A stretch of DNA of 64,000 bases from Vairimorpha necatrix. Taxonomy: Eukaryota. The notes under the pieces were generated by a model. The model was not told the origin of the DNA. It worked only from the letters and a program-made list of their open reading frames with translations, and did not search any database. This document shows positions 1-64,000 of the stretch, in pieces; position 1 is the first letter of the stretch, and every line of letters begins with the position of its first letter. The translations under genes and the position numbers were made by a program. The stretch spans positions 496,001 through 560,000 of the forward strand of contig CP142731.1 of the NCBI GenBank assembly GCA_036630325.1. Reading direction: 5' to 3'.

Positions 1-118
1 AAACATCATCACATTAATCATTTAGTTTACAATATTTTCTCAAACTAAATGTCATTCATTTGTTTGTTTGTTTACAAACAATTAAATATTTAAAAATAGC
101 CCCTCACCAAAAAAAAGG

Positions 119-30700: not shown

Positions 30701-31182
30701 GTGGGAAGTAGACCTAGTAGGTAGATTAAATGACAACGGTAAAACCAAATTTATAGTTATCTGTATAGATCACCATACTAAATGGATAAAGACGAAAATA
30801 ATCAACCAGAAACCTCTGTAGAAATTATAAAAGTACTTGAAAAATTTATGAATAAGTCCAATGAAAAGCCCAATAGAATATTATCAGATTGTGGACTAGA
30901 ATTTGCAAATACAAAGGTTTCAGATTGGGCCCAAAGGGTCGGTATTAAATGGGACTTCTCGTCCCCATTCCATCATCAGACCATTGGAGCTGTTGAACGT
31001 GTGATCCAAACATTTATGAACAAATTGAAAAAGCTTACCGATTTTGGAAAGAGACATTGGACAAAGCTGGTGAAGGTTGCAACTTTAGCCGTAAATTTAT
31101 CTTATAACAGAGCTATTGGGACTTCACCATTCGTATATAAGGAAGGAAGATTACCAGAATTGAATATAGATAAAACGGATCA
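27759..31182 (+). mobile_element. Ty3/Gypsy element D, frameshifted, 3'-truncated by a Merlin
   Basis: PBS TGGCGAC at 27884; CKIHGTGNHDTEFC, DTGA, YLDD, TDAS, TDHRAL, integrase; 5' boundary approximate. Confidence 0.88.
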
Positions 31183-32264: not shown

Positions 32265-32808
32265 TGATTCGTTTAAAGTGCTTAGTTGAAATAGACGAGA
32301 TATTGCTTGTTAAAATTAAAAACCATAACGGTAGAATCCTTCAATACCAGTTTTGGGCTGTACGTGGAGTAGTAAGAGGAGACAGCAATTCCTTTTTTTC
32401 AAACTGTGGAAATTCGATTAAGAACTACTCTTGTCGATTTAATAAAACGAAAAATCGCACCCTGTTCTACAATTATTACTGATTGTTGGTGCGGTTATTA
32501 AGGGGTTTCGGAACTATGTCCGGATTATAACTATTTACATTTAACTGTAAATCATAGCCAAAATTTAGTAAATGCAACAACAGGCGCTCATACCCGAACA
32601 ATTGAGGGAATGTGGTCAGTAATTTATTGGGAGTTGCGCAAAGAAGGACTTGCCATGGTTCTTTAATGAATCTACTTCGAAAACTCTATATAGCTCGTTT
32701 TAAGTTAATTTATAGAGAATTACTACTTGAAAGAATGTTAAGCTTTTTTAAAGTTACAAATATATGGCTTTTAAATTACGATTTAGCGACTGAATTTGAT
32801 GTTGAAAT
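32265..32808 (+). pseudogene. Merlin transposase fragment; its 3' end resumes at 44430-44508
   Basis: Same family as 22865-23758; continues aattgaataa...gggtaacatcgcaacttaacc after element E. Confidence 0.8.
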
Positions 32809-33169
32809 TGTAGGAAGAGTGACACATGTCAAATCCAACTGTGTCCATCTTCAGAGATTTGACATGTCTGTCTTTAAATATTTTATAATAAATAAACCCA
32901 TGTTTTCACTCCAACAATTTGGCGACAAGGACAAGAACTTTCTCACTTTCAGAAATGAAGAGAAAGACAACCCACAGCAGTTCTTGGAGAACTTGCTAGA
33001 GGTGGGGAGGTTGCAGGAATACAGCGAGGGTAAGCTTATACTCCTTTTTAAAATGTCTCTAAAAGAAGAAGCAAGGGACTGGATTAACGCTCAGCCAATA
33101 GGACTAAGGCTTGATAAATTGATCGAGGGATTCAAAGGAAGATTTTTTAGCAATATACAATTGAAAATA

Positions 33170-35778: not shown

Positions 35779-35935
35779 TCTATTGATAAACTTTCTTCTT
35801 TAAGATATCATGGGGTTTTTTATTAAATTATCTGGATAAGATGGCGGGATTGGCACGAAAAGGCAATGTCCCGGAATGTGTATTGATAGCTTTTACATTA
35901 AAAGGACTACCTAATGACATAGCAAACATTGTGTT

Positions 35936-38900: not shown

Positions 38901-40644
38901 GACAATCTATAAACAAGAAAAGGTCGAATTTTTATGCCATATAATAAGTCAAAATAAAGTTTATCCAAAGAATTCTGTTACACAGGGCATTGACAATACG
39001 GAAACTCCCCGAGATAGAAAGCAATTACAAGAATTCTTGGGTCTTATTAATTATTATAGGAAATTTATTAAAGGATTGCAATTATTGGAGCACCCTTATA
39101 TGACTTATTACAGGAAAAGAAAAAATATATATGGGACGAAGGTGCCAAAAAAGCATTTGAAGCATTAAAAGGGAAACTAAAGCGAAATCGAAAAAAAATC
39201 AACCTGACTTTAATAAGCCTTTTCAATTTGAAACAGACGCTTCTAATCATGGTATAGGAGCAATTTTATCACAAACTAATGAGAACGGGAGATACCCAAT
39301 AGCTTTTGCCTCAAGAAGATTGAAGGAGCTGAAAAGAAGTACAGCATTTCAGAAAAATTTTTTTTAGCAATCTTATGGGGACTTGAACATTTTAAGTATT
39401 TTGTGTATGGACACAGGTGAATGTAATTACGGACCACAAAGCGTTAGAGGTTATTAATAAAGGAGATATTGCATGCCCGAGAATTCAAAGGTGGTTAGAT
39501 AGGTTAAGCATGTTTGACTATGTTATCAAGTATAAAAAGGAAACGAGATGGTACACGTGGATTGCCTAAGTAGAAATACCACAAATATAGAGTCGGAAAA
39601 GGAAATGGAGAATAACAGGGTTGTAGAGGTAAATTACGTTATAATCAAGGAATGTAGGCAAAGGAAATTTATAAGTAGAATCCATGAAGAATGTCTACAC
39701 AATGGCGAAAAGACGATTAAACATAAACTACTTTTACAAGGTATTAATTTTAAAAATATGGATAAAATAATAAAGGAAGAGATTTCTAAATGTGTTATAT
39801 GCAAACAATATAATCCAAAAAAGAATAAAAAATTTGTTTTTGTAACGGCCCAAGAAGTAGGGGGAAAGGTAGCCATAGACATAATCGGACCAGTAGAAAA
39901 CCGTTATATAATATCTGGGATCGATTACTTCACAAGAAAAGGATTTGCCAAGATTATAGGCAGTAGGCAGGATAGTAATGTTCTTAATTTCGTGAAAGAA
40001 CTTCATAAAGATTTAAAAATCCAGATGCTAATTTTAGATCAGTCTAGAGAAAATCTGAGCAACAAAATCCAAGACTTTGCCAGAGAACAGAAATTCGAAC
40101 TGCATTATACCTCCCCGTTCCATCATCAATCTGGTGGACGGGTTGAAAGATTTAACAGAACGTTGCAAGACTTGATATATAAAAATAAAAATGATAGCCT
40201 TCTTACTAATAAAGTAATTAAAGCGGTAAAGGTATATAATGAGTCATATCACACTGGGATAGAGATGACCCCAGAAGAAGCGGTGAAAGAAGAAAATCAT
40301 CAAAAATTAAGAGAAATACAATTCAAAAAAAGAATTAAATTCAATAAAAAGAACTCCAACAAAGAGAGAGAGGAAATATTTAAAAATGGAGATATTGTTT
40401 TAATTAAAGAAGAAGCAGGCTTGACTAAAGGTAAGCCCAGATTTAAAGCTAGAGGAATAATTGTTAGTAATGCAGGTGAAAGTTCATACAACATTAAGGT
40501 GAAAAAATAGATAATCAAAAGACACGCCTCACAACTTAAGTTAATTATAGACGAGCTTTCCTCTTGACCAGTGGGATGTTGTTATTATTTAAAAATTTAT
40601 ATTTTTACCCCTTAATTTTATGAACAGTGAGCATGGAAACAAAA
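35936..40644 (+). mobile_element. Ty3/Gypsy element F, 68-bp LTRs
   Basis: LTRs 35936-36003 and 40577-40644; TSD gtgtt; PBS TGGTGGAGAATG; CYNCGKSGHISRYC, YVDD, integrase. Confidence 0.9.
37469..38681 (+). mobile_element. Merlin transposon in RT of element F
   Basis: TIR GGCGCTACTTCATTTTCTTGCCCC; perfect TSD gattatac; VQFDET, ISDGYPS. Confidence 0.92.
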
Positions 40645-45371: not shown

Positions 45372-46767
45372 ATGTTTTTCGTGAACTTGCTTATTCTTTT
45401 CATTAAAACAATAAGACCACTTACTGCTGTCATTGCAGAAGAAACATGCGAACAAATACCAGAAGACATTTGTAAGGCTGTAGGTAGACGAGGGGTTGTA
45501 GCAAATTCTACAAATATCAATGCAATGGTAAACTTATTAAATAAGATGAACATTGAAAAGGCCTATGTGTTTGGGTGGGAGATTGCCTAGAGACTATGGT
45601 ATTGTATTCTAATGGAGCTCTTGTCCCATACATCAAAGACAGAATCAGTAGTAAATACGCAATGTGCATAGGAGATTGTCCATGTAGACCTAAAATACTA
45701 GGTGAATCTACAAAAGAATGTTGTGCTTTTTTGGAAGAGAGACCTAAATCATGTTGCGGAACAAAGAATGTAGAATCCAAGACCTGTTGTAGATCAGATA
45801 AAAGGGCCGAAAGTCTATGCTCGTGCAATCAGATGCTAGTCAATAAATCTCGTTTTACAATGAAAAGCCAACCCCACGTGTCGTGTTGAAATACGAAATC
45901 ACAACATCATTCTGTAACATTAAAGATCATGAAGGTGAAATAGCAGAATCCAAAAAGTGTTTTCTAACTCAAGAAGCAGCGCCTTGTCAATTTAAAAGAT
46001 ATAAAGGTTCATGTTGTTACATTGACAAGAGATTGTGCTGTAAACAGACACGACCGAGAGCTTGCACCAATGATCGTAAAAATAATTGTAGATGTCATTT
46101 AAATAAAAGGCCGTGCTGCAGTTATGATTATAAACAGCATTGTTTTAAAACAAAAAGGTGTTGTATTGATAAAAACTCATACAATGATAAGTATCATAAG
46201 CGACGCCCTTGTGATAATGAACACTACGAAGAATCTCATGGATCAAGACAAGAAAGCGAGTCTTCTTCAGACATTTATATTCAGAGCTCGGAAGAATATT
46301 GTGACGTGAAAATAAATAATTGCTTAGTACCTCCTACTATCGAACATAATGAATATTTTCAAGAATTATTTTATGCCGATGAAGAAAGAAAAAATAAAAC
46401 GACGACAATAAAATCAAAATCTTTCGAATATAAGTCGGTCGAAGATGAAAATATTTCTTTAGCAGAAAATGAATACACATATCAACACACAAAAAAAGAA
46501 ATAGTCATTGACAAATGTGATGGTAAACTGTTGAAAATTCCTAGAAAATTATATGATTCATTCCTCATCTATCAAATTACTAGTAAACTCAGTTCCAAGC
46601 ATCGTATGCCCATGTGTCTATATATCACTGATGATGATTTATTATTCGTGATGATAAATCATAAGATGTATCACGTAGACATAACATGTAGAAAGTTAGT
46701 ACTTGAAGAAGTATGTAATAAAGATAGGGAAATGCTTCAATTGCATCTCATAAGATTTATAAATTAA
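45372..46767 (+). CDS. EnP1: EnP1-like Cys-rich endospore/spore wall protein with two apparent frameshifts
   Basis: Hydrophobic N-terminus; MNIEKAYVFGW..MVLYSNGALVP..KYAMCIGDCPC recalls Encephalitozoon EnP1 (from memory); CCC motif just upstream of ATG. Confidence 0.75.
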
Positions 46768-47726
46768 ATAAATGCTTAGTGTAACATATTTTCTCAATAC
46801 ACAAAAAACCACTTTTCTTTAACACTTCTTTTTTTTTCTAATATATTACTATTAAAGTAATGACTTTAAAGTTTGAATTTGAATCTTATAATAATGGGTC
46901 TTTGTAAAAAAAACTCATGTCTTTTACAAGCGTGAAATATGCATTATTTATTTTTTATGAAAATTATATTAATAGAGTTTATTTCTAAATGAAATTAACT
47001 CGAACAAATATAATAATACTAATCTACACAAAAACTTCGTTTAGATTATTTTAAACTAAAATTTATCTTAATCATCATTATTTTTTTTTCTTGGATTATA
47101 TACTTATATAATCATTCTTTTGTTGTAGAAGGTCCCCGTATTATTAGACGTGAAATTTTATGAGTTATGGAAGATATAGAAATAATATATTTATTTCAAA
47201 TCATCAAAATGTATTTTGTTATTGACAATTCATTATATACAGTAATATAGCAAAGAAATTTTTAGTTATAATTCGCATTGAATGGGTCCTGCGATATATT
47301 TATTGATATATTTTGTAGAGACCAGGGCATAATCATATCATGAGACTTAAAAGCATCGGTATTAGAGTATAGTTTTTTGTACTTACAAATTGGGATATGA
47401 TACATAAAGAATAATTCCACCTTTAGATCATTTTTACTATAAGTCGGTTCTTTAGCGGATTAACAAACTCTGATTGAACTTTCTATTTTTATACAAACCC
47501 ATTTTTGTGGCTATAAAGTCAATGATGGCATTATACTTTTTATATATCTACTTCTACTATATTACACCAATAATGTTAAATGGTTTTTATTTTTTTCGTG
47601 TTTTAAACACACCAATTTTATAACTTTATACTTATTGTGTCATTAAGATTTAATCTAGTTGAGATTCTCAAACTGATTTTTCGAAGAGCATGTACTATAT
47701 ATTTATACATTTTTATTCGAAGTATG

Positions 47727-48058
47727 TTTTGTAAAACTTAAATCCAATATATCATAAAGACATTTTTTAGAATTTTTTTAACATTTCCACAAAAAAAAAA
47801 ACGAAAACATATTACTCATAAAAATGTGCATAATAAATATAAAAAATTGAACCTAAAACATTTAGAAGATACCCCATTATTGTTTTTAAGTTGGTGTGAT
47901 TCAATTTTCTATTTCAGTTTTGCTTAGATGTAATTTCTACTTTTTTAGAAACCATGATTTTTCCTTTTTAAATTCACCCAACATAGGTCGAAGTTCATAT
48001 AAAAAAAACCGATGAACGAATCAAGTTGATAGCATTAAAAAAAAATGCATACGCTAGT
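47727..48058 (+). mobile_element. Decayed non-autonomous Helitron remnant
   Basis: Degenerate central block at ~47727-47790 and gcatacgctag 3' terminus. Confidence 0.6.
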
Positions 48059-51000
48059 GTACTTTTAAAATATTGTGAAAAAACAATAATCAAAAATTAA
48101 TACAATAATACTATCATAAAAAAAAATATGAAAATAACAAATTGAAAATTTATCCAGGAGTTTTCAAATTTTTTAAAAGGATGCAAAGGTCTTATTGAAG
48201 ATGATGAAAGTCGAGTTGTACAAAGGGAATTAAAATACTAGTAACTGGAGTGTCTTACACGATTATTAATTTTATATGATGAATAATGACTACTTTATTC
48301 AAGAAAAACTTTATAATATGAGAAAATGCATAAATGTTTTATGTAAATAGATATTGGAAGTCCAACATAACGTGTTTATGTTTGTCTGAAAAATACATTG
48401 TACTGTCCATGTTTCTAAAACATAAATTTTAAAAAATAATCGAATCGGCTCTGTATGTCTAAAAAAATTTAGATAAAAAAGATATTGCTGTAATTTTATT
48501 TCGGAAAGATTTTTAACACGAACCACATAAATCTGAACTCAAATAGGAAGTTTAAGCATCATATTAAATGCCCGAAACCGATAGGGTGCTTATACAAACA
48601 ACTATGTACATTCTGTCATTGTTTTTTACTTCTTCGTATTTCAATGTATTGATATGTTACACAAAAGCCAAATATCTATAATATAATTAATGCCAATAAA
48701 GAAATAATCCAGAAAAAAATTATAATTTATTATATAAAAATTCAAGCGTCAAATTCTACGTATAATGTAACATATAGACGTATAAATAAGAAAAACATGG
48801 AATTTACATTTTATGTGGCGTAAAATTACGCATAAAATGAAATTAATTATAGTTCTAAATTAAGTATTGATTATTTTTCAATAATAAATACCTAAAAACA
48901 TTTTAGATAGGTTTTTATTTAAATAAAAAAATCAGAATCTGCTAGTGTTTTATTAGAAATCAAAACCCAGTTGTAAATCTATATTTCATACATTGCAACA
49001 AAAAGAAAAATGATTCAATGATTTATTAAATATTATAACCATATTTAGTTGTCATTGTTTATAGCAAAAATAAATAAAGCTTATAGAAAACTTATGAACT
49101 GTAAAATACGTAATATTTTATTAACCAAACAGCTACAGTAAATATGCTGTTAGGCTAAGCTAGAAGACTGTACTGAGGCATTATACAGACAAAATTACTC
49201 AAAATGAATTTGGAACCCAGGCAGAAATTATATAATAAGGTACGGAAACGGAAATAATCATTGAAGCCCGATTCTAGGGGGTTTTCGGGTCGCACCCCCA
49301 AAACATCTAAAGCCATAAGACAATTTTCAATTTAAATATTTTTTATTTCACTAATTTAATGCAAAAATTATTTTCATATTTTTAATTTTTAGTCGAAATC
49401 TATTTATTTCATATTTATACGACTGTTTTTGATAAAGAAAATTTTCTTTATTAAATCAAGAGCTCATTCTCTAAAAAAAATTATTGTTTTCTTTTTTAGA
49501 CATTAAAATTCCTTTGTTTATATTTGTATGATATTTTCATAATTTTTTGTTAGAGACAATATATCCTGATAGACACAAAGACGTTTGACAAATTCAGAAA
49601 CATAATCTTAACAAATTTTAATTGAAGTTTTCACTAAACGGGGATTACTTGTAAATATTGTTAATTACAGTCAAACTAAATAGATACACGAGAGTTTAAA
49701 TAATTTAATGTTATTCTTAAGTTTTTAAATAGTTTTAAAACATATATATCAATGAAAAACTCAATATTTTAGAAATATATGTCTTTTTATAATTTCTTGC
49801 TATAGTATCCGATCAAATATTGACGAAACATATTTTTACAAGTAGAGATTTGTTTGTTTGCATAAATCATTAAAAACATTTATAAAGAAGGGATGAGAAA
49901 TTACTTAAAAAAATTTACAATTCTCGTAACAGCTACATCGATTTCCCACGTTAGTTATATACAGTTACAACCCCTCTTAAAGTAAAATTATATGTAAATG
50001 TCTTAAAAATTATCCCTCAAAAAAAATATTAATCTTTTTGTCGCGGCCAAATAAGGGGCCTGGTCATGATGGTATGTTGATTTATAATTTTTTTATGTGT
50101 TTCATCGTTTTATATATTAATTTTGTGGCTCAATGTTCATATTTTAGAAAATCCACTACTTTTGTTTGTATTTATCAAAAGCTAACAAAATATACCTGTA
50201 TAATTTTATATTTTTGTAGGGCTACTATCATGTCATAATGACATATCACATAAAATAAATCTGTCAAACATCTTATCACTGACTGGGAAACGTCGATAAA
50301 TAAACAAAAATATTTTTAGAGATATATTTATAATGTACGATACAAACAATTAGTATTCTTGTTAAACAAATTGTCATGTCCTCAAAACCATGACATCTGT
50401 GTTTTACTGTGTTAAAACTTTAATCAGTAAAACACTGCCCCGAACGAATAGTCTAAGGCGGTGATCTCTAACGATCGGACATGAAACGTTATGTTTCATA
50501 AATAAATATAAATAGTCCAAAAAAGTTTGAAGACACCGAGCATGAAGAGTAACTTTAATAACAAATCAAATAAAAAGAAATATAATACAAATATTTTAGA
50601 AATGTATTTAAAAGACGGAGATATTACTCCGGTTCATGTCACAAATAAACATTAAAAATAAAAGAAAGGCATGTAATCTAATCTAGAGCAAGGCCAATAA
50701 AGCTATCAGTAAGTGAAGCAATAAAAATATATTTTAAGAGCATATGTACTTTATACTACATAAATTAATATACAATTATACATGATGCATTTATTTGTGT
50801 TATACATCACAAACTCACCATGGAAAAGATATAATATATTTTTATGTGAGTATCAAAGTCAAAGTGTCATCTCACATCTTAAAAATGTCAAGTTTTTTGT
50901 TTATTTGTTTGGGTCAACAAATAAACAAAACAAATGTGTATTAGACAAAATAATTTTATATCTGAGAATTAGATAATAGATCATTTAATTTTCAGAATAA

Positions 51001-51380
51001 TCATAGTTTTAGATAAATATATAAGTTGTGTTCATGTATAATACTGTAGTATCATGTAGATTCAACTCTTTATAAAGCATCATTTAGAATTCATGTTTTT
51101 TATACAATTTTTACAAAATTATAAATGTTGCTAATCTCAGATCACAATTTTGATCAGTGAATCAGTGATTAATCAATCATTTGCTGATTTATTAAAATAA
51201 TTTTTTACCCTTGTAAAATTTTATTTCATCCAATCTGATATTATATCATTTATTAAGTATTTTTAAACAATTATAGTTTTCATATTTTATATTATAAGAA
51301 TTTGTATTAAGAAATATATTTATTTCTAATATTTTCATAAATACTGATTAAAATCAAATATATTGATTTTTAATACACAA

Positions 51381-52627
51381 CACCAGGTTGATTCTGCCTG
51401 ACGTAGACGCTATTCCCTAAGATTAACCCATGCATGTTTTTGATATGGAAAAATGGACTGCTCAGTAATACTCACTTTATTTAATGTATTAAATTAGTAT
51501 AACTGCGTTAAAGTGTAGCATAAGACATATACAGTAAGAGTGAGACCTATCAGCTAGTTGTTAAGGTAATGGCTTAACAAGGCAATGACGGGTAACGGTA
51601 TTACTTTGTAATATTCCGGAGAAGGAGCCTGAGAGACGGCTACTAAGTCTAAGGATTGCAGCAGGGGCGAAACTTGACCTATGGATTTTATCTGAGGCAG
51701 TTATGGGAAGTAATATTCTATTGTTTCATATTGTAAAAGTATATGAGGTGATTAATTGGAGGGCAAATCAAGTGCCAGCAGCCGCGGTAATACTTGTTCC
51801 AAGAGTGTGTATGATGATTGATGCAGTTAAAAAGTCCGTAGTTTATATTTAAGAAGCAATATGAGGTGTACTGTATAGTTGGGAGAGAGATGAAATGTGA
51901 CGACCCTGACTGGACGAACAGAAGCGAAAGCTGTACACTTGTATGTATTTTTTGAACAAGGACGTAAGCTGGGAGGAGCGAAGATGATTAGATACCATTG
52001 TAGTTCCAGCAGTAAACTATGCCGACGATGTGATATGATATTAATTGTATTAGATGATAGAAATTTGAGTTTTTTGGCTCTGGGGATAGTATGATCGCAA
52101 GATTGAAAATTAAAGAAATTGACGGAAGAATACCACAAGGAGTGGATTGTGCGGCTTAATTTGACTCAACGCGAGGTAACTTACCAATATTTTATTATTC
52201 AGAGAAGATTTATAATCTGAGAATGATAATAGTGGTGCATGGCCGTTTTCAATGGATGCTGTGAAGTTTTGATTAATTTCAACAAGACGTGAGACCCTTT
52301 TATTAATAGACAGACACAATCAGTGTAGGAAGAAAAGGATTAAAACAGGTCCGTTATGCCCTCAGACATTTTGGGCTGCACGCGCAATACAATAGATATA
52401 TAATCTTTATGGGATAATATTTTGTAAGAGATATTTGAACTTGGAATTGCTAGTAAATTTTATTAAATAAGTAGAATTGAATGTGTCCCTGTTCTTTGTA
52501 CACACCGCCCGTCGCTATCTAAGATGATATGTGTTGTGAAATTAGTGAAAACTACTTGAACAATATGTATTAGATCTGATATAAGTCGTAACATGGTTGC
52601 TGTTGGAGAACCATTAGCAGGATCATA
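51381..52627 (+). rRNA. Microsporidian SSU (16S-like) rRNA
   Basis: caccaggttgattctgcctgac start, gtgccagcagccgcggtaa, gtacacaccgcccgtc, aagtcgtaac, ggatca; ~1.25 kb. Confidence 0.98.
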
Positions 52628-52664
52628 ATAAGTTAAATTTAAATTAATTTTAATTATTAAATTT

Positions 52665-54258
52665 ACCCACACATGGGATCAATAGGATACCATAACGATG
52701 AAGGTCGTAATAGAATACGAAAGTATATTATTTACCTAATTAATATATTTATAATGTATTGATAACCCTTTGAACTTAAGCATATCATTAAAAGGAGGAA
52801 AAGAAACTAACTAGGATTTCTTTAGTAGCAGCGAGTGAACAAGAAATAACCCTCCATTGTAATCCTTAATTGGAGTTGTAAATGGTTTATTCTATTAATT
52901 ATATTTATAGAGAATATTATATTCGTTATTAATAGAATAGAATAATGTACTTGAGTAGAGCTGCTTGGTAGTGCAGTTTGAATAAAGGTAGAATGAAATA
53001 TCTAAGGTTAAATATAATGGTATACCGATAGAAAATAAGTACTGCGAAGGAACTTGTGAAAATGTGTGGAGTTTAGCCTTATTTTTAAGGACCCGTCTTG
53101 AAACACGGACCAAGGAGATTATAATTATAGCAAGATAAAAATTAAATTTTTTAATCTTTATTAACTTGATTAGTTATAATTATAAGACCCGAAACACAGT
53201 GAACTATACATGTTCTGGTTGAAGATAAGCAACAGTTTATTGGAAGACCATAATCATTCTGACGTGCAAATCGATGATTTAAGATGTGTATAGTGGCGAA
53301 AGACCAATCGAACTGTGTGGTAGCTGGTTCACAGCGAAATGTCTCTCAGGACAGCAGTTATTATTATATAGGACATAGATGTAGGACACTGTTATAGTTT
53401 TTTAACTATGAGAAATCTTTAATTCTATGGAATTATATAAATTAAATTTATATAATGAATCTATTGTATAACTAGTGGGCACATGATTGTAAGAATGATG
53501 TGCAAAAAGGGATGAACCTTATGAAACATTAAATATTCTAAATAGTAGATATTATACCATAAATATGATGAATACATTGAGACAGTAGGGCGGTTGTTAT
53601 GGAAGTAGAAATCCGCTAAGAAACGTGTTACAACGTACCTACCGAATGTATTATTGTATAAAATGGAAGAAGATTACTACTTTTATGAGATGTTTCTAAT
53701 AAATATTTAGGTAGCTGTGCAATTTGTTTGTATTGAAGTATATATGTGAGTATATATAGAAGAAACAAATGAGCCGATCTTGGAGGCAGTAACAATATAT
53801 TTGTATAGATATAGACTAGGGTTTTCAATTATTATTGAAGTGAATCGGTGTTATTTATAAAAACAAAAAAGATTAATAATTCTTTATTAAATTATTATAA
53901 GGTAACTTGATAATGACAGTATATTTCAATAAATTTAAGATAAATGAATTAAATTTTATTTTAACTATGGATTGTCATGATAAGAAATAGTTAATTATAT
54001 ATACTTGATAAAAATAAAATAATTTTAACCGTACCTATACCGCATCAGGTGTCTTTGTATCATAACAAATATTTTAAATTAAAGTAAGTAAGGGAATTCG
54101 GCAAATTAGATCTGTAACTTTGGGATAAAGATTGGCTCTAGCATGCTAGAACTTTTACTATGTAAGGAATCTGACTGTTTATTAAAAACATAGCTTTTTG
54201 TATTTACAAGAAGTGAATTCTGCCCAGTGCATTTATTGTTAAAGTTGTGTAAGCGAAT

Positions 54259-54311
<53 letters not shown>

Positions 54312-54410
54312 TTAATTGGTGACGCGCATGAATGGAGCAACGAGATTCCTACTGTCCCTACTTACAATTTTGTGAAACCACGAGACAAGGGAACGGGCTT
54401 GTTATTTATC

Positions 54411-54442
<32 letters not shown>

Positions 54443-54877
54443 TTAGTATGTTTTAATAAATATTCGGTATATTGTAGAGAGGTGGGAGAAGTATTGTGAA
54501 ACCACTAGTATGTTTGAATATTTATTTATTAGAATATATGGGGAGTTTGGCTGGGGCGGTACAGCTGTTAAAAAGTAACACAGCTGTCCTAAGGTAGATG
54601 AATGATGGATGGTAACCATCAGTTTATTATAAGGGAATAAATCTGCTTTACTTTATGCATATGACTGTATTTAGTAGGGAAACCTTGGCCTAGCGATCCC
54701 AATTACATTCATTATGTATTGGGTGATTGAAAAGTTACCACAGGGATAACTGGCTTGTAGCAGGCAAGCGATCATAGCGACTCTGCTTTTTGATTCTTCG
54801 ATGTCGTCTCTTCTGATCATCGTAGTGTATATGTTACGAAGTGTTGGATTGTTCACCCGGTAATGAGGAACGTGAGA

Positions 54878-54919
<42 letters not shown>

Positions 54920-55145
54920 TAAGTATTTTTGAGTGAACTTTGATAGTACGAGAGGAACTCTAAGTGATGACCACTGGTAGTGCGATTAACTATTAAGTTA
55001 TGTTGCTTAGCTACGTCGTTTCGATTAAGGCTGAAAGCCTCTTAAGCCTGAAGCGTAGCTCAAAGATACATTTAGGAGAATACTACTCTTTTAAGCAGAA
55101 CTGTAAGAATGAAGGTGTATGCCGACATTTTGAGGTTACTGCTTT
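52665..55145 (+). rRNA. LSU rRNA with fused 5.8S, after a ~37-nt AT-rich ITS
   Basis: gacccgtcttgaaacacggaccaagg, taaggtagccaaatgcctcgtc, sarcin-ricin agtacgagaggaac, terminal helix aagcagaac...gttactgctt; ends approximate. Confidence 0.96.
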
Positions 55146-55330
55146 TTTGTATGTATAGTAGGTGTTGTATACAAATAAGAGAGCGTATACGTCGCGGAGG
55201 GTGGGACCGATGTTTTTTAACTAGGTGCAGATCTCTAAGTCTTACCAACCTTCGGCTGCTGGTTGGTAAGTAGGGCCAGCTATACTCTAGGGGTGGGAGA
55301 CCCATTGCTGGTGAGAAGGACACCGTTAAC

Positions 55331-55399
55331 ACCCTCCATAAGAGAGCGTCCACGTCGCGGAGGGTGGGACCGATGTTTTTTAACTAGGTGCAGATCTCT
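55331..55399 (+). ncRNA. HDV-like self-cleaving ribozyme
   Basis: P1 ACCCUCC/GGAGGGU, P2 AGAGA/UCUCU, P3 GCG/CGC, L3 UCCACGU, P1.1 CC/GG, P4 ACC..GGU, J4/2 GCAGA. Confidence 0.9.
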
Positions 55400-55832
55400 A
55401 AGTCTTACCAACCTTCGGCTGCTGGTTGGTAAGTAGGGTCAGCTATACTCTAGGGGTGGGAGACCCATTGCTGGTGAGAAGGACACCGTTAACTTTCGAG
55501 TAATTCTTCATATTTTTAACCTGGGAGAGGTTGGGCATGATACTGAAGCTGTATTGTTCCGCTGAACTGAGTCGTGTTCTTAAATGGTGTATTGAACCAG
55601 GCGTTGTGTTTTCGTCAGGTCCGCGAAATATGTAGTCAGAGATGACTAAGGATCTGTTACCTACGGGAACAAATTTTTCTCCTACAAGCGAGGCCGTTGA
55701 GGTATGCTGGCGTGTAATCGCAATTATTGATGTTTTTCTGGTTGGTGGAGTTTTTGGTGGCTTGGTGGCTTTTCTTCGTTTTGCTGATTCTGTCTTTTTA
55801 CAATAAACAATTTTAATTTTATTTTTATTTTT
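55331..55832 (+). mobile_element. Ribozyme-headed SINE-like element, full length
   Basis: 15-bp TSD aaggacaccgttaac (55316-55330, 55833-55847); AATAAA then T-rich tail. Confidence 0.88.
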
Positions 55833-56007
55833 AAGGACACCGTTAACTTTCGAGTAATTCTTCATATTTTTAACCTGGGAGAGGTTGGGCATGATACTGA
55901 AGCTGTATTGTTCCGCTGAACTGAGTCGTGTTCTTAAATGGTGTATTGAACCAGGCGTTGTGTTTTCGTCAGGTCCGCGAAATATGTAGTCAGAGATGAC
56001 TAAGGAT

Positions 56008-56076
56008 ACCCTCCATAAGAGAGCGTCCACGTCGCGGAGGGTGGGACCGATGTTTTTTAACTAGGTGCAGATCTCT
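56008..56076 (+). ncRNA. HDV-like ribozyme, copy 2
   Basis: Same sequence as 55331-55399. Confidence 0.9.
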
Positions 56077-56505
56077 AAGTCTTACCAACCTTCGGCTGCT
56101 GGTTGGTAAGTAGGGTCAGCTATACTCTAGGGGTGGGAGACCCATTGCTGGTGAGAAGAACACCGTTAACTTCCGAGTAATTCTTCATATTTTTTAACCT
56201 GGGAGAGGTTGGGCATGATACTGAAGCTGTATTGTTCCGCTGAACTGAGTCGTGTTCTTAAATGGTGTATTGAACCAGGCGTTGTGTTTTCGTCAGGTCC
56301 GCGAAATATGTAGTCAGAGATGACTAAGGATCTGTTACCTACGGGAACAAATTTTTCTCCTACAAGCGAGGCCGTTGAGGTATGCTGGCGTGTAATCGCA
56401 ATTATTGATGTTTTTCTGGTTGGTGGAGTTTTTGGTGGCTTGGTGGCTTTTCTTCGTTTTGCTGATTCTGTCTTTTTTACAATAAACAATTTTATTTTAT
56501 TTTTT
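56008..56505 (+). mobile_element. Ribozyme-headed SINE-like element, full length
   Basis: 16-bp TSD agagatgactaaggat (55992-56007, 56506-56521). Confidence 0.88.
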
Positions 56506-56756
56506 AGAGATGACTAAGGATCTGTTACCTACGGGAACAAATTTTTCTCCTACAAGCGAGGCCGTTGAGGTATGCTGGCGTGTAATCGCAATTATTGATG
56601 TTTTTCTGGTTGGTGGAGTTTTTGGTGGCTTGGTGGCTTTTCTTCGTTTTGCTGATTCTGTCTGTCAGGGGACAAGCCCAGGTGCATACTGAGACTTGCC
56701 CTGCCCAAGGAATGAATTGTGTTTTGACAGGGCTTTGGAGAGACCAACACATTAAT

Positions 56757-56825
56757 GCCCACCACAAGAGAGCGTCCACGTCGCGGAGGGTGGGACCGAT
56801 GTTTTTTAACTAGGTGCAGATCTCT
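56757..56825 (+). ncRNA. HDV-like ribozyme variant (G1.U wobble, A-A mismatch in P1)
   Basis: P1 GCCCACC/GGAGGGU; core otherwise conserved; heads the SINE copy ending at 57252. Confidence 0.8.
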
Positions 56826-57252
56826 AAGTCTTACCAACCTTCGGCTGCTGGTTGGTAAGTAGGGTCAGCTATACTCTAGGGGTGGGAGACCCATTGCTGG
56901 TGAGAAGAACGCCGTTAACTTTCGAGTAATTCTTAATATTTTTAACCTGGGAGAGGTTGGGCATGATACTGAAGCTGTATTGTTCCGCTGAACTGAGTCG
57001 TGTTCTTAAATGGTGTATTGAACCAGGCGTTGTGTTTTCGTCAGGTCCGCGAAATATGTAGTCAGAAATGACTAAGGATCTGTTACCTACGGGAACAAAT
57101 TTTTCTCCTACAAGCGAGGCCGTTGAGGTATGCTGGCGTGTAATCGCAATTATTGATGTTTTTCTGGTTGGTGGAGTTTTTGGTGGCTTGGTGGCTTTTC
57201 TTCGTTTTGCTGATTCTGTCTTTTTTTACAATAAACAATTTTAATTTTTTTT

Positions 57253-57839
57253 AGTGGTAAAACCACAAATAAAACCAACTTTAATAGATTTAAATCACTT
57301 AAAGTAGAAACCGGCGGCAATATAAAAGTGCCCAAAAATACTATTTATGAAGTTTTAAACAGAAAATTTATCATTCCTAAAAAAGATATGAAGGGTAAAG
57401 CGCAACAAACCAGGAGCAAGCTCAGTAGAGCAAAAAGTGACCACTTTGGTGGTCCAAACAACAATTTAGATACAGAAATGTATTTAAAACAACAAACTAA
57501 GCATGTATATGCTAATAAAAGTTTCCCAAGTGTTACTTTCAAAAATGATGGAGAAATGAAATATTTTCTCAAGAAAATCAAAATTCTCTCAGAAAGAATT
57601 AATAAAAACGATATTTTTGACACGTCAAAAAAAGAAAATAACAAAGATCTTCTTGATATTAAAAGATACATATCTAGCACTACTGAATTAGTATTGATTC
57701 AGCAGACATATTTGGAGCTCTTCCATGATAAGCTAGAAAAACAAAATATCAAATTAAAAAATTTGAAAAAAAATAATCTGATGGATGACAGTAATCAAAT
57801 TACAGAATCAACAAAAAATAAAATTGAGATGATGATAGA
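57253..57839 (+). pseudogene. Older LINE ORF1 pieces (internal 57253-57387; N-terminal 57388-57839, continuing at 63613)
   Basis: Paralogous to ~58760-58895 and ~57842-58295. Confidence 0.85.
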
Positions 57840-57841
57840 AA

Positions 57842-59515
57842 ATGAAGGGTAAAGCAAGAGAAAGCAGGAGCGAGCTCAGTAGAGCAAAAAGTGACCACTT
57901 TGGTGGTCCAAACAACAATTTAGATATAGAAATGTATTTAAAACAACAAACTAAGCATGTATATGCTAATAAAAGTTTCCCAAGTGTTACTTTCAAAAAT
58001 GATGGAGAAATGAAATATTTTCTCAAGAAAATAAAAATTCTCTCGGAAAGAATTAATAAAAATGATATTTTTGACACATCAAAAAAAGAAAACAATAAAG
58101 ATCTTAGTGATCTTAAAAGATACATAGCTAGCACTACTGAATTATTACTGATTCAGCAGACATATCTGGAGCTCTTCCATGACAAGCTAGAAAAACAAAA
58201 TATCAAATTAAAAAATTTGATTAAAAATAATCTGATGGATGACAGTAATCAATTTACAGAATCAACAAAAAATAAAATTGAGATGATGATTGAGAATCAC
58301 TCAAAAGAATGTGTAGAACAAAAGGATAATAACTCCGATGTTCCAAATGATACCAGTAGCGAAACCCTTCAGTTAGCTACTGGAAACAATGATATTTCTA
58401 AATTAGAAATCATAAATGAAGATGTTTTAATTAATGTCAAAAATATCGTGTCTGCTGTCAAAGTAGAAGAAGAAGATCGATTGTCAGATGATGGCAAAAG
58501 AAAATGTATAGGTGTCTCAAATGCGTCTACAAATATTATAATTAATAAAAATATTAAAACAAAAGATGTTAAGCTAGACTTAGCTTTCATTAATAAAAAA
58601 GCAGTAGTTAGACATCTGTCAACTATCTCTGCTATTATAGCTGGTAAAAGAAAAGCTCCTAAGAATGGAGTCAAGCTTTTCCATATAAACGAAGACGGAT
58701 GGACATCTGTCAAACACACATTCAAGCCTAAAGTCCAGATAGACTTGAAGAAAAACAGAAGTGGTAAAACCACAGATAAAACCAACTTTAATAGATTTAA
58801 ATCACTTAAAGTAGAAACTAGTGGCAATGTAAAAGTGCCCAAAAAGATTAATCATGAAGCTGTAAAGAGAAAGAATATCATTCCTAAAAAAGATCATGAA
58901 AAGGAAAGATTACAAAATCAGAGAATAAATTTTACAAAAAAAACGAAGGACAGAAAAAATGAGAAATGTCAACAAAAAAGAGTTCCAGTTTTACCAAAGA
59001 AAAACTGGGCCAAAGAGCTATCTGAAGAAGCTCTTATGAAAATTATTAAGGATGGTAGAATTATTTCCAAGTGTAAGTTTAGGATAGCTCTTGTGTCTGG
59101 ACTCGGATTGAAAGGGAAACCTCAATCTAGAGACGCTTGGGCAGCCTTAGCTGATGTGGAAAATAAAGATATACCACTTATAAAACAATTTAAAGATTCG
59201 GAAGTAGTACTTCTGATGATTAGAGAACACGTGGGCCAAAAGGTACTAAGCAAAATTAAAGAAAAGTTCGGAGGTTCTAATATCTGCGATGAAGTTAATT
59301 TCTTCACCGACTTTATGTCTTTAACAAAAACAACTGTTCTAGGAGAGCTGCAAAGACTCTCTGGAACGCATAAAAATTTTGTACCGCTTGTAAAAGCATG
59401 TTGGTACATAACTAAAGAATTAAATAAAGAAAACCCAAACCATGGTTCTTTCATTATTTTAGAAAATATGATGGGTGAGCCTGCCCGAGAATCTAAGGAC
59501 TTTAACAATGAATAA
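57842..59515 (+). CDS. LINE ORF1, 557 aa, Lys-rich, no recognisable zinc knuckle
   Basis: Long ORF directly before ORF2, with diverged copies nearby. Confidence 0.8.
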   Translation: MKGKARESRSELSRAKSDHFGGPNNNLDIEMYLKQQTKHVYANKSFPSVTFKNDGEMKYFLKKIKILSERINKNDIFDTSKKENNKDLSDLKRYIASTTELLLIQQTYLELFHDKLEKQNIKLKNLIKNNLMDDSNQFTESTKNKIEMMIENHSKECVEQKDNNSDVPNDTSSETLQLATGNNDISKLEIINEDVLINVKNIVSAVKVEEEDRLSDDGKRKCIGVSNASTNIIINKNIKTKDVKLDLAFINKKAVVRHLSTISAIIAGKRKAPKNGVKLFHINEDGWTSVKHTFKPKVQIDLKKNRSGKTTDKTNFNRFKSLKVETSGNVKVPKKINHEAVKRKNIIPKKDHEKERLQNQRINFTKKTKDRKNEKCQQKRVPVLPKKNWAKELSEEALMKIIKDGRIISKCKFRIALVSGLGLKGKPQSRDAWAALADVENKDIPLIKQFKDSEVVLLMIREHVGQKVLSKIKEKFGGSNICDEVNFFTDFMSLTKTTVLGELQRLSGTHKNFVPLVKACWYITKELNKENPNHGSFIILENMMGEPARESKDFNNE

Positions 59516-62500
59516 AGTATCTTTGTTAAAGTCCTGTTATTATAGGAAATTATTTTCCTATAACAAGAGTGATATTTTCAAATCTCTAAATAAAAAAACG
59601 CATAATCCAATTGGATTTACTCAGATTAAAAATACTTTCCAAACGACAACGAGATTGAATAGTCTCAAATATTTTTCTATTAGAAAGAATATGTGGTGGA
59701 AGAAAGTACAAGAACAATATTGTATTGTCAAGATACAAAGAATTCCTTATGGAGTGAAAGATCTCCTCAAAGACTTATGTAAGAAGAACTCTCTTTTGGA
59801 GAATTCCATCATTACAGCAAGAAAGTATAGACGAAGAGACACGTCTTTTACAAAAATAATAGTTGAAAAACTATACGCAAATTTATTGATTAAGACAGTT
59901 AAAGCTAAAGGCTTTAAAGTTTTAAATGATAATAGAAAAGAACTAGAGAAATCTAGTAAAGTAAATAAAAAGACCAAAGAGAACATAAAACTCTTAAGTC
60001 TAAACATTAATCATCTCTCTAATAAGAGAGAAGAACTTGAGTTTCTTCTTAAGAAGGAGAAACCAGAAATTATGTGTTTACAAGAAACTTGGAGACAATC
60101 TACAAGACCTTTAAAACTTGAAAAATACACTACAGTTGAAACACCTAGTGGTGGAAAAAATAAACCAGGATTAATAACTCTGGTTAGAAATAATGGAGCG
60201 ATCAGATGTTCCAAAAAAGGAACCGACTCAAACATTCTGCAAACTGTAGTTGAGTTTAGTTCAGCAGGCAAATGGATTAAGTATTTAGTCTTAAATGTCT
60301 ACATACCACAAACAAGGATCTCAAAAGGGAGACCTTGGCTAGATTATTTTCTCTTTTAGAAAAAGAGAATTTCAGAAATAACTATAGTGAGATCATAGTG
60401 ATGGGAGATATGAATATGCAGAGTTCTAGTCTCAAGAAAAAATTAAATGTAGTTGGTTTGCCAGTTACAATAAAATATAACAGCAACGATGGTACAAGGA
60501 TCCTCAAAGATGGTAAAAGATCTAAGAGGAAAATTGATACCATCTTTCGACTAAAAAGTAATGATAATGAGAAGATCATTATATCCAAGTCTTGGGTATT
60601 AAGTGATCACTTAGTGCTCAAAAGAAGTATTAAACTTGCCGTTGATAAGATCTCCGATCAACTAGTTTATGATAAGAAAATGCTGGAAAATCCAAAAGTG
60701 ATTAAAAAGCTAAAAAAGAAGTTGTGTAATCAACAATTAAACATGAATAATCTCCCCGAGATTATTCAGAAAGTTTGTACATCTTTGAAGATTTACAAAA
60801 AGAGAAGAGTCCATACTGGACTTACAATGAGATGGAGATATTTAAAAGTCTTCAAAGAAAAACGTCTAGCAGCAAGAGCTGTTATGAAAAATTACAATGA
60901 AATCAACTCAATTAGATTCGAATATCTCAAAAAGAGAGTAGACGAAACTAAAAAGTTGATTCGCAAAGATAGATCGAAACTTTGGGCTTTAAGAGGAATA
61001 AAGCTCTTTAAAAGTAACAGATACCGAGAATTCTGGCAATGGCTGAAAAATAGAAGTGTTTCCATTCGTTTGGATCAAGTGGCTCTAATTGACCACAATA
61101 AGCTTCTTCAGACTTGCCGAGCAAAGAAGCTAGAAATAGCAAATAATTTTTACGCTGATTTGGCGTCAGAGAATGATATAGATGTCAATGTCTATGATAA
61201 AGTAGATCTTGTTGATCTTCCCCCAGAGATAACAGATGAAGAATTTCTATCCGCACTGAAGAAATGTGGAAATAACAAAGCTGCCGGTCCTGATGAGATT
61301 CCAACCGAGCTATACAAATACTTACTGACTAGAGCAGTAGAAGATAAATTCTTTAAATTCATGCTACATGAATTTAATAAATATATTTGTGGAAATAGTA
61401 CTCCTGAATATTGGAGCATGGCAAACATGATTTGCCTTCACAAAAAAGGAGATGAGACAGATCTGAATAATTATAGGGGAATCTCCTTAATTAACACAAT
61501 TAGTAAGATCTATCTCAAGATAATAAATGACAGGTTAACTCAATTTGTCGAAGAACAAGATATACTCTCTAGATACCAAGCAGGATTCCGAGCAGGTGAA
61601 GAGTGTATGAATCAGATTACATCTCTACTAGAAATAGTGAGAAGAAGAGAATTCAGAGGCTTGAACACAATAATGTGTTTCATTGACTTTGAAAAAGCTT
61701 ATGATAATGTAAGTCATGACTTATTATTTGAAAAGCTTACAAAACTTAATATCCCATTGTATTTAATCAATACAATAAAGGATATTTATAAATATACCAC
61801 CATGCGTGTGAAAATTGGTGGTGACACGTCAAGTGGTTATAGCTACAGAAAAGGAGTGAGACAAGGGTGCCCTTGTTCTCCAATGCTGTTCAATATATTC
61901 ATCAATGATATTTTTGACGGCATAGAAGGAGTTTTGATCCCAAGATCAAATACGAGAGTTCCGGGACTGATGTTCGCAGATGATATTGTTGTCTTCGGAA
62001 ACAACATTGATGATCTTAATAATAAGATCAATAGAATTTCAAAGTGGGCAGTTAATAACAGAATGAAGATTAACTGCACAAAAAGCGGAGTATTAGAATG
62101 GAATGCTCATTCTAACATACAAGAATTCCGAAGTTTATATTCTCTCAGTACAGACTTTGGTGTGATTGAAGAAGTCACTGAATACAGATATCTAGGTGTC
62201 TTAATTAAAAGAAACACGCTAGAAGAACACTTGGTTAAAGACGCAGCAATGCGTGGCAAGAAAGCCTTGGACGCCTTGATGCCCAAGTTGATGAATAGCA
62301 GCATCAATCTCTACTTCAAGGCGATCTTAATAAAATGTGTACTAGTACCCACACTAATGTATGGCAGTGAATTGTGGGGAATGTCAAGTACAAGAGCAGG
62401 TAAGATTAACAGGATCTTAAGAAAATCTATCAGAATGATATTCAAAAGAGTATTAGTTCCACTAGATAGAGTAATGGACGAGTTCAGTATCGAACGAATT

Positions 62501-63199
62501 CATATACAAGCAGCTTTGAGTAGATTCAGAGCATACAACAAGTGGAAACACAATAAGACAATCATATCGGATATAATCTCAATTAATCCGAAAGAAAGAA
62601 AAACTACCTGGTGTTCAAGAACACAAAGATGGTTAAAACGATTTGTTGGCAACGAATACGAATCAAGTGATAGTAGATTTATCACTACAAAAATAATTGA
62701 TGTACTAAGAAGTCGAAGAACTCTAAATACTTCTTTAGCTGCATCAATAGCAAACCAATATGACATAAGAAATTCACAAATAAAATATGTCATGAACAAA
62801 ATAAACAATAGAAAAATTAGAACATATACTAGATTGAGATGTAATCTAGTAAAGTGGTCCTCAGCAATAGCATATTCAAAAAGAATACCAATGAGTTATA
62901 GAAACAAATGCTTTTTGTGTGATGGACCACAAGAAAATTTAGAACACTTTCTGTTGGAGTGCGTCTGTTTTACTGACATTAGAACATCTTTTGAAAATAA
63001 ACTGCCTCTACTGACTTGTTCAAAAACAAATATCCGAGAAAAAACCAAACAACTCCTTGGTAATAAAATCGGACTAAAAAATAACCCAGATAAGATAAAA
63101 GAACTTTGTTGGACTATAGAGTTCTTAGATAGAATGGTTGTCTCTAGAAGAATTATATTTGAAAAGAAACTTAAAGAGATAACAAAACAGGATAATTAA
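59508..63199 (+). CDS. LINE ORF2: APE endonuclease, RT, CCHC; one -1 frameshift at ~60325
   Basis: SLNINHL, CLQETW, MGDMN, SDH; YRGISL, FIDFEKAYD, GVRQGC..SP.LF, FADD, YRYLG; CFLC..HFLLEC. Confidence 0.92.
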
Positions 63200-63612
63200 T
63201 ATGAATAATTAAAAACAATAAAATCTAGAAATGGAAGAAAGAGATGTTATTTTACTAACAAGAAAACTTATATTTAATTATATTTGACCTGGGAGAGGTC
63301 GGGCATGATACTGATGCTGTATTGTTCCGCTGAACTGAGTCGTGTTCTTAAATGGTGTATTGAGCCAGGCGTTTTCGTTTTTCATCAGACTCATGAAAGT
63401 GGGTCTCTAGTCATATTATGACTAAGGATGTATCCTATGGGAACAAACTTTTCTCCTACAAGCGAGGCCGTTAAGGTATGCTGGCGTGTAAACGCACTTA
63501 TTGATGATTTTTTCTTTATTAGTGGAGTTTTTGGTGGCTTGGAGGCTTTTCTTCGTTTTGCTGATTCTGTCTTTTTTTTACAATAAACAATTTTATTTTA
63601 TTTTTTTTTTTT

Positions 63613-64000
63613 GAGATGATGATAGAGAATCACTCAAAAGAATATGTAGAACTAAAGGATAAACCCTCCGATGTTCCAAATGATACCAGTAGCGAAACCC
63701 TTCAGTTAGCTACTGGAAACAATGATATTTCTAAATTAGAAATCATCAATGAAGATGTTTTAATTAATGTCAAAAATCTCCCATCTGCTGTCATAAATCT
63801 CGACACTGCTGTCAAAGTAGAAGAACAAGATAAATTGTCAGAAGATGGCAAAAGAAAATGTATAGATGTTTCAAAGGCATCTACAGATATTATAATTAAT
63901 AAAAATATTAAACCAAAAGATGGTAAGCTAGATATAGCTTCCATTAACAAAAAAGCAGTAGTTAGACATCTGTCAACTATCTCTGCTATTATAGCTGGTA
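63613..64000 (+). pseudogene. Continuation of the interrupted older LINE ORF1
   Basis: Paralogous to ~58280 onward; runs off the window. Confidence 0.85.

Follow-up and report, generated by a model that had tools for sequence, protein, structure and literature searches.

R2 is a long interspersed nuclear element (LINE) specific for a site in the 28S rRNA gene, and a 5′ ribozyme of the hepatitis delta virus (HDV)-like type frees its RNA from an rRNA co-transcript (PMC3774820). In the hybrid short internally deleted elements (SIDEs) of Drosophila, the R2 ribozyme stands directly before R1 3′ sequences, and the composite is moved by R1 with 14-bp duplications (PMC3414825). The L1Tc and NARTc elements of Trypanosoma cruzi carry a ribozyme (Pr77/L1TcRz) in their first ~77 nt, the cleavage of which frees the element from co-transcripts (PMC3383444, PMC3185411), and in the microsporidia Hamiltosporidium tvaerminnensis and Gurleya vavrai specific LINE repeats lie mostly between tail-to-tail rRNA operons (PMC12449221). 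Here we analyze 64,000 nt of Vairimorpha necatrix DNA (assembly GCA_036630325.1, contig CP142731.1, positions 496,001 to 560,000, forward strand; called the window and numbered from its first letter), in which a short non-autonomous retroelement follows the large subunit (LSU) rRNA gene as part of a nested array. The element combines a candidate HDV-like ribozyme at its 5′ end with a 3′ end shared with a LINE of the same array. We regard it as a known kind of element, a (putatively) ribozyme-headed non-autonomous LINE partner, here in a phylum new for it and at the margin of an rRNA gene rather than inside it.

The closest analogues of the short element are the R2/R1 hybrid SIDEs, along with the R2 SIDEs, of Drosophila. 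SIDEs and the Vairimorpha element alike are short and non-autonomous and join a 5′ HDV-like ribozyme, here a candidate, to a LINE 3′ end, and in the hybrid type as in Vairimorpha the LINE that provides the 3′ end and the target-site duplications (TSDs), R1 in the fly and the LINE denoted Y in Vairimorpha, is not the source of the ribozyme. The SIDEs depend on rRNA co-transcription, which for the Vairimorpha element is a proposal only. They use the fixed R1/R2 sites inside 28S, whereas the readable targets of the Vairimorpha element lie in its own sequence and the cluster is outside the gene; the hosts are an arthropod and a microsporidian, respectively, and no R2-like element was seen in the window. 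The candidate itself has helix lengths in the R2 range (P1 of 7 bp, P2 of 5 bp, P3 of 3 bp, and a weak P4), the R2 ribozymes having a P1 of 6-7 bp, a P2 of 5 bp or longer, and a P4 that varies widely, from absent to long (PMC3774820). Unlike R2, LINE Y has an endonuclease of the apurinic/apyrimidinic (AP) type, finds its best PDB match in L1 ORF2p, and lacks a ribozyme, and the LSU gene is uninterrupted. L1Tc/NARTc resembles the Vairimorpha pair in that an AP-endonuclease LINE has a truncated partner with a 5′ HDV-like ribozyme (a candidate in our case), but the autonomous L1Tc carries the head, which is also an internal promoter, whereas in Vairimorpha only the short element has the head. The LINEs of Hamiltosporidium and Gurleya are likewise microsporidian LINEs at the 3′ flank of rRNA operons; these hosts belong to other clades, and the excerpt of that report describes no partner element, ribozyme, orientation rule, or mechanism. 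A full-text literature search combining microsporidia, HDV-like, and ribozyme returned no paper on the topic, as judged by titles.

If the ribozyme is active, the element would represent an HDV-like ribozyme in a microsporidian and a second, independent chimeric non-autonomous element that pairs a ribozyme head with the tail of another LINE. If the mechanism proposed below is true, it would supply a concrete basis for the co-location of rRNA operons and LINEs, which in other microsporidia is so far descriptive (PMC12449221). It would be relevant, too, to the persistence of retroelements without promoters in parasites that have small genomes.

Composition of the short element

The element is ~499 nt long. 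Its 3′ 313 nt (positions 186-498) match the 3′ untranslated region (UTR) of LINE Y at 87% identity, and its 5′ 185 nt match neither LINE Y nor the two other LINEs of the array, X and Z. This 5′ module is G+C-rich, and no other stretch in this part of the window has as high a G+C content as the element; the G+C content of the whole window is 31.8%. The sole open reading frames (ORFs) across the element are on the opposite strand, so that it is non-coding in the sense direction. It carries an AATAAA motif at position 474 and a T-rich tail, and it is flanked by TSDs of 15-16 bp versus 17-18 bp for the LINE. On the basis of the LINE-shared 3′ end, the LINE-like TSDs, and the absence of sense coding capacity, the element is a non-autonomous LINE partner of the short interspersed nuclear element (SINE)/SIDE type. 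Target-primed insertion is what mobilizes it, and its 3′ end is the part held in common with the LINE. The shared 313 nt presumably serve as a handle for the LINE reverse transcriptase (RT). When the shared 3′ module was folded with RNAalifold, 2 of the 80 predicted pairs showed a compensatory change between element and LINE, too few to argue for a conserved structure of the handle.

Stricter class assignments were considered and rejected. A SIDE in the strict sense takes both ends from one element, and the 5′ 185 nt of the Vairimorpha element are absent from the LINEs; it is at best hybrid-SIDE-like. A tRNA-derived head was rejected on finding no tRNA gene in the 64-kb window. The element also has no match to an Rfam small RNA and no A or B box (short motifs), and it contains 12 runs of at least four T, of which six have at least five, among them a T6 at position 46. 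Transcription by RNA polymerase III is therefore implausible, and a strict polymerase III SINE was rejected for want of a tRNA-, 5S-, or 7SL-derived head and for its many internal T-runs. An earlier, sequence-only reading of this DNA had spoken of SINE and LINE pieces; the LINE and its short non-autonomous partner are indeed present, and the term SINE proved too loose for the same reasons.

A candidate HDV-like ribozyme at the 5′ terminus

To describe the head of the element, helices were read by hand from the sequence and compared with the layout of HDV-like ribozymes, which was taken in part from the R2 literature (PMC3774820) and in part from general features of the class. The first 72 nt fit the nested double-pseudoknot layout of this ribozyme class (Table 1), with, as the proposed catalytic residue, an unpaired C at element position 61, four bases upstream of the P2 3′ strand. 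The minimum free energy (MFE) fold recovers P1 enclosing P3 together with a small P4. A permissive Rfam scan of positions 54900-57400 yielded two weak matches to the CPEB3 ribozyme; one, of 16.0 bits, coincides precisely with the 5′ end of ins2 and the other, of 14.3 bits, with that of copy 4, both of them full-length copies. The match at ins2 has an E value of 0.038 on the 106 nt around this 5′ end, for which no other family was reported, and of 0.89 on 2.5 kb, and the P3-L3-P3 core agrees with the consensus of the CPEB3 model at 12 of 13 positions. Matches to other Rfam ribozymes and small RNAs in the same interval were noise only, for example two lncRNA fragments at E 2.6-3.

The layout was then written as a descriptor (P1 of 7 bp, P3 of 3 bp, L3 with U first and G next to last, P1.1, P2 of 5 bp, and C at -4) and run on both strands. 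The full descriptor matched twice in the 64-kb window, at 55331 and 56008, where ins1 and ins2 begin. When the window was shuffled 100 times with dinucleotide frequencies preserved, the full descriptor gave a mean of 0.16 matches (15 of 100 shuffles with at least one), and the core without P2 gave a mean of 1.39 (74 of 100). Among 5000 shuffles of the 499-nt unit, 30 contained a core match and four a full match, the latter corresponding to a chance of ~1e-6 per position. The predicted cleavage site coincides exactly with element base 1 as set independently by the TSDs, and that the motif should fall on this very terminus is not easily explained by chance. A ribozyme placed exactly at the 5′ end typifies elements that are carried on a host co-transcript.

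The two remaining copies for which the 5′ region can be compared carry changes in it. In copy 4 the P1 strand reads CCCACC, which creates one mismatch in P1. This copy is the sole full-length one with a mutated P1 and also the sole one preceded by foreign sequence, a G+C-rich stretch of 94 nt (56664-56757) that is unique in the window and has no Rfam family above noise. The stretch might be a 5′ flank copied from the uncleaved transcript of a P1-mutant source, a suggestion that concerns a single case. The oldest copy, O, lacks the 5′ strand of P1 and has AT in L3 where the intact copies have CC; with P1 incomplete and L3 mutated, its ribozyme is dead. An alternative P1 strand for copy O, taken from a G-U-rich 7-mer in the LSU tail that by eye could pair, was rejected since the L3 of this copy cannot form P1.1 and no descriptor match results.

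Several observations weigh against the ribozyme assignment. The CPEB3 scores of 16.0 and 14.3 bits are far below the gathering score of 35, and no other HDV-type Rfam family matched at E values up to 10. The descriptor was composed from general features of the class after the candidate had been seen, which makes the shuffle figures generous. The 72 nt do not differ between ins1 and ins2 and thus show no covariation, and the two other copies carry the disruptive changes just described. A G-U wobble at the base of P1 is usual, though not universal, in HDV-like ribozymes; here the base of P1 is the pair A1-U35. P4 is weak, the predicted stability of the 173-nt 5′ module is within the range of its shuffles (z = -0.51; 58 of 200 at least as stable), and an exact pattern of the 28-nt ribozyme core had no match in the metagenome, genome, and viral contig collections searched. 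Taking both sides together, we consider it quite likely that the first 72 nt adopt an HDV-like fold, and the predicted ribozyme may reasonably be expected to cleave itself in vivo. The combination of element pair and functional ribozyme head, with the source of the RNA set aside, is favored with slightly more reserve.

Nested insertions downstream of the LSU gene

The reference copy (56008-56506) was compared by BLAST with the whole window, and the array was resolved by alignment, BLAST, and checks of the junctions (Table 1). The search returned seven matches, all on the + strand and all within 55175-63606, with none in 1-55174; the LINE pieces, with BLAST bounds of 57253-57400, 57388-57848, 57842-63612, and 63611-64000, are on the + strand as well. 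The TSD of ins1 is AAGGACACCGTTAAC (55316-55330 and 55833-55847), that of ins2 is AGAGATGACTAAGGAT (55992-56007 and 56506-56521), and the two insertions share their first base, the A of ACCCTCC. Among the LINEs, X was inserted into Z and Y into X. We conclude that one LINE and its non-autonomous partner built the array through at least seven nested, target-primed insertions in the same sense; the relationship between LINE and partner and the nested mode of insertion are close to certain. A tandem array of intergenic-spacer sub-repeats was rejected, the copies being nested with perfect TSDs and not arranged head to tail in register. The fragments of copy O are 97.4%, 98.3%, and 100% identical to ins2, and the 100% piece, which adjoins ins2, could reflect gene conversion between neighbors.

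Table 1. Features of the rRNA locus, the nested array, and the candidate ribozyme (window positions unless element positions are given)
Feature	Position	Strand	Evidence or remark
Small subunit (SSU) rRNA gene, microsporidian type	51381-52628	+	Rfam RF02542, 1048.1 bits
LSU rRNA gene	52743-55166	+	Rfam RF02543, 1342.3 bits; 3′ end from archaeal model RF02540
Spacer, modeled LSU end to first element base, 8 nt	55167-55174	.	
Oldest copy (O), fragment 1, element positions 8-163	55175-55330	+	BLAST 97.4%
ins1, full-length non-autonomous element, inserted into O	55331-55832	+	Perfect 15-bp TSD
Candidate HDV-like ribozyme of ins1, 72 nt, same sequence as in ins2	55331-55402	+	Descriptor match
Copy O, fragment 2, element positions 149-324	55833-56007	+	BLAST 98.3%
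ins2, full-length non-autonomous element, inserted into O	56008-56505	+	Perfect 16-bp TSD
Candidate HDV-like ribozyme of ins2	56008-56079	+	Rfam CPEB3 16.0 bits, MFE fold, descriptor
Copy O, fragment 3, element positions 309-466, stops short of tail	56506-56663	+	BLAST 100%
G+C-rich stretch, 94 nt, unique in window, directly upstream of copy 4	56664-56757	.	BLAST finds itself only
Copy 4, full length, three changes in element positions 1-9	56757-57252	+	BLAST 98.0%
LINE fragment Z, 5′-truncated	57253-57387	+	Matches LINE Y 58760-58908 at 87%
LINE X, 5′ part, starts at ORF1 ATG, broken by Y	57388-57843	+	94% to Y
LINE Y, inserted into X	57842-63612	+	TSD 17-18 bp, one mismatch (57826-57843 and 63613-63630)
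LINE Y ORF1, 557 aa	57842-59515	+	
LINE Y AP-endonuclease part	59475-60359	+	40% identical to P0001, E 2e-59
LINE Y RT part, frame differs from endonuclease part	60335-63199	+	Pfam RVT_1 6.4e-39
LINE Y 3′ UTR segment homologous to element positions 186-498	63283-63606	+	87%
LINE X, resumption after Y, runs off window	63613-64000	+	88% to Y 58278-58646
P1	Element 1-7 with 29-35		7 bp, six G-C
P2	Element 11-15 with 65-69		5 bp
P3	Element 16-18 with 26-28		3 bp
L3	Element 19-25		7 nt, starts with U, penultimate G
P1.1	Element 20-21 with 36-37		
P4	Within element 39-59		-3.4 kcal/mol

The array begins almost at the end of the LSU gene. This end was set by local alignment to the archaeal LSU model RF02540, the last position of which (2987 of 2987) falls on window position 55166. 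The eukaryotic model RF02543 runs on to 55309, an over-extension of ~140 nt into the first retroelement copy, so that automated annotation would put the LSU 3′ end within the element. Position 55145 is the end of the last long LSU helix and not of the gene. Alignment to the repeat family begins at 55175, ~8 nt past the modeled LSU end and ~30 nt past 55145. The statements of the sequence-only reading that a retroelement cluster begins ~30 nt after the LSU end, and that every piece has the rRNA sense, are thus borne out, the distance being 30 nt from 55145 and 8 nt from 55166. The span that it assigned to the cluster, 55145..57840, is too short downstream, as retroelement sequence reaches the end of the window. 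Its interpretation as a whole is partly supported.

All seven insertion events point one way, but these orientations are not independent because four of the seven went into older copies of the same family. The remaining three events (O, copy 4, and Z) are the ones oriented relative to the rRNA itself, for which the probability by chance is 1 in 8. The three nick sites that can be read are purine-rich (AAGGAC, AGAGATG, and GAGATG). Three sites define no target consensus, and the preference of the endonuclease is loose and purine-rich at most. Both the LINE and the rRNA have purine-rich sense strands, a property that could by itself bias the orientation of insertion.

Two insertions lie in one old copy of 460 nt and three LINEs are nested within 600 nt, a clustering that we take to be far above random insertion for a genome of ~15 Mb, the size reported for V. 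necatrix. This excess points to a target preference that is satisfied by the elements themselves, to local re-insertion, or to strong survivorship bias. It also speaks against an ordinary transposon graveyard, in which copies would pile up by chance or at a harmless site, the 5′ hairpin would be non-catalytic, and an internal promoter would start transcripts at base 1. Such a promoter has a parallel in the 77-nt head of L1Tc/NARTc, which acts as promoter as well as ribozyme (PMC3383444), and the LINE starts at an ATG without a ribozyme, so the family can make defined 5′ ends without one. The TE-dense (transposable element-dense) surroundings on both sides of the rDNA, the Rfam score under the cut-off, the lack of covariation, and the frequency of the P2-less core in shuffles (mean 1.39; 74 of 100) would all suit a graveyard. 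A full descriptor match at the exact first base of the element (~1e-6 per position) and the 12 of 13 identities to the CPEB3 consensus in P3-L3-P3 would not, and we judge this explanation unlikely.

Source of the RNA

For an element with a ribozyme head, we propose the following sequence of events. A non-autonomous copy located downstream of an active promoter would be co-transcribed within a longer RNA, the ribozyme would cut directly 5′ of base 1 and so shed the upstream RNA, and the LINE RT would recognize the shared 3′ end and copy the released RNA into a new site, giving rise to the 15-18-bp duplications. The element itself would be without a promoter of its own, and no promoter features were seen in its sequence. 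For ins1 and ins2, the two copies that are intact, the evident and a plausible candidate for the RNA source would be read-through of the rRNA gene. Within ~10 kb upstream of the array, the only same-strand feature annotated in the window is the rDNA unit; a further 5 kb, upstream of the SSU gene, is AT-rich and free of ORFs. As the rDNA is the sole same-strand unit found upstream, LSU read-through would be the simplest co-transcript for ins1 and ins2. We put forward rDNA read-through as the RNA source at this locus only tentatively, with doubt prevailing.

The doubt has several grounds. No cleavage is possible beside the LSU end because the copy located there is O, with no P1 5′ strand and a mutated L3. 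The nearest intact ribozyme, at 55331, is ~165 nt downstream of the LSU end, and a cut there would leave ~165 nt on the LSU rRNA. The readable target sites fall in the element's own sequence and none in the rDNA. The 50 kb upstream of the rDNA are TE-dense, with gypsy, Helitron, and DDE-transposase elements, and given this density and the 50% repeats of the V. necatrix genome, a transposable element beside rDNA is in itself unremarkable. LINE Y has a frame break in ORF2, where the endonuclease and RT parts overlap by 25 nt (60335-60359), so that we probably see either a defective copy or an assembly error at this point.

A stronger version of read-through would make the LSU 3′ flank a dedicated niche, with elements replacing the 3′ external transcribed spacer, RNA polymerase I reading through in most or all units, and cleavage helping to form the LSU 3′ end. 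The start of the element in sense orientation ~8 nt after the modeled LSU end, the co-transcription implied by a ribozyme head, the confinement of the family in the 64-kb window to the 3′ side of the rDNA (0 matches in 1-55174), and the Hamiltosporidium and Gurleya repeats, which lie mostly between tail-to-tail rRNA operons (PMC12449221), are consistent with such a niche. The window, however, offers a view of one rDNA unit only, the copy that flanks the LSU has a dead ribozyme, so that any cut would keep 165 nt or more attached to the LSU, such target sites as can be read belong to the element itself, and the endonuclease is of the AP type, with a loose purine-rich preference at most (3 sites). 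A dedicated niche is accordingly improbable in our view, and a contribution of element cleavage to LSU 3′ processing is speculative and very unlikely.

One could go further and regard the rDNA 3′ flank as the master locus of the family, at which read-through by RNA polymerase I would provide the RNA, the ribozyme would trim it, and the products would re-insert nearby, while copies with dead ribozymes would stay fused to pre-rRNA and the LINE machinery would occasionally retro-copy whole rDNA units. A master locus of this kind would, if true, explain why rRNA operons are dispersed as single loci in Vairimorpha-like microsporidia; we hold it to be most improbable. That this particular rDNA unit and its adjoining element travelled together, through retro-copying of a read-through pre-rRNA or an RT jump from element RNA onto rRNA, is the least credible of the explanations: the junction copy, 5′-truncated by 7 nt and with no working ribozyme, would leave an rRNA-element co-transcript whole, V. 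necatrix rDNA occurs as 18-20 dispersed single loci (PMC10759460), and template jumps of the R2 RT in vivo have been reported (PMC3414825), but no duplication flanks the rDNA plus element (46000-51380 compared with 55167-64000, a weak test as the 3′ end of O is missing), the best exact repeat is a 17-mer inside LINE ORF1 (blastn E 0.17), and a retro-copy would be without an upstream promoter.

The rDNA unit, the LINE, and the upstream region

An Rfam scan of the window detected a single rDNA unit, on the + strand. Its 5.8S-like part may begin before 52743, the modeled start of the LSU gene. In V. necatrix 18-20 full rDNA loci are reported, dispersed and neither tandem nor subtelomeric, in a genome of ~15 Mb with 50% repeats (PMC10759460). 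A 20-nt LSU pattern retrieved seven loci from metagenome contigs, six of which are 77-79% alike over the conserved part only. The seventh, on a contig of 2359 nt (L006), is 100% identical to window positions 54645-55053 over 409 nt of the LSU; as this contig breaks off at window position ~55053, short of the LSU 3′ end, it is uninformative on the flank.

LINE Y extends over ~5.8 kb, with a 3′ UTR and a T-rich tail reaching to 63612. Its ORF1 has no Pfam family. The endonuclease part matches Exo_endo_phos at 18.1 bits, under the Pfam cut-off of 24.5, and is related to P0001, a 1237-aa single-ORF protein with both domains, including PF03372. The best solved relative of Y is human L1 ORF2p (2.4e-27), with R2 proteins behind (6.3e-23), and the best named relative of the RT is a Vairimorpha necatrix protein with 86% identity over 38% of the query. 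From the RVT_1 match, the endonuclease homology, the TSD, and the truncated copy Z, LINE Y is assigned by homology to the AP-endonuclease type. Membership in the R2 clade, or of any LINE site-specific for rDNA, was rejected because of the AP-endonuclease homology and because the insertions are located in the element's own sequence and not within the LSU. Both X (from 57388) and Y (from 57842) start within the ATG of ORF1, which indicates that the LINE RNA is essentially without a 5′ UTR and without a ribozyme.

A 17-nt exact match links 50597-50613, in the AT-rich region 0.8 kb before the SSU gene, with 57927-57943 and 57474-57489 in the 5′ part of LINE ORF1; the similarity does not extend further and is probably due to chance. 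Among the 13 upstream ORFs scanned, no ordinary host gene was recognized. The ORFs of transposable elements in this region lie at 119-3928 (+), 4253-8557 (-), 10401-13280 (-), 18994-19845 (-), and 28002-40510 (+). The upstream elements comprise a Ty3/gypsy-type polyprotein with protease, RT, RNase H, and integrase, several broken gypsy pieces, two Helitron helicase ORFs, one of them shorter at the N terminus, and an IS1595/Merlin-like DDE transposase.

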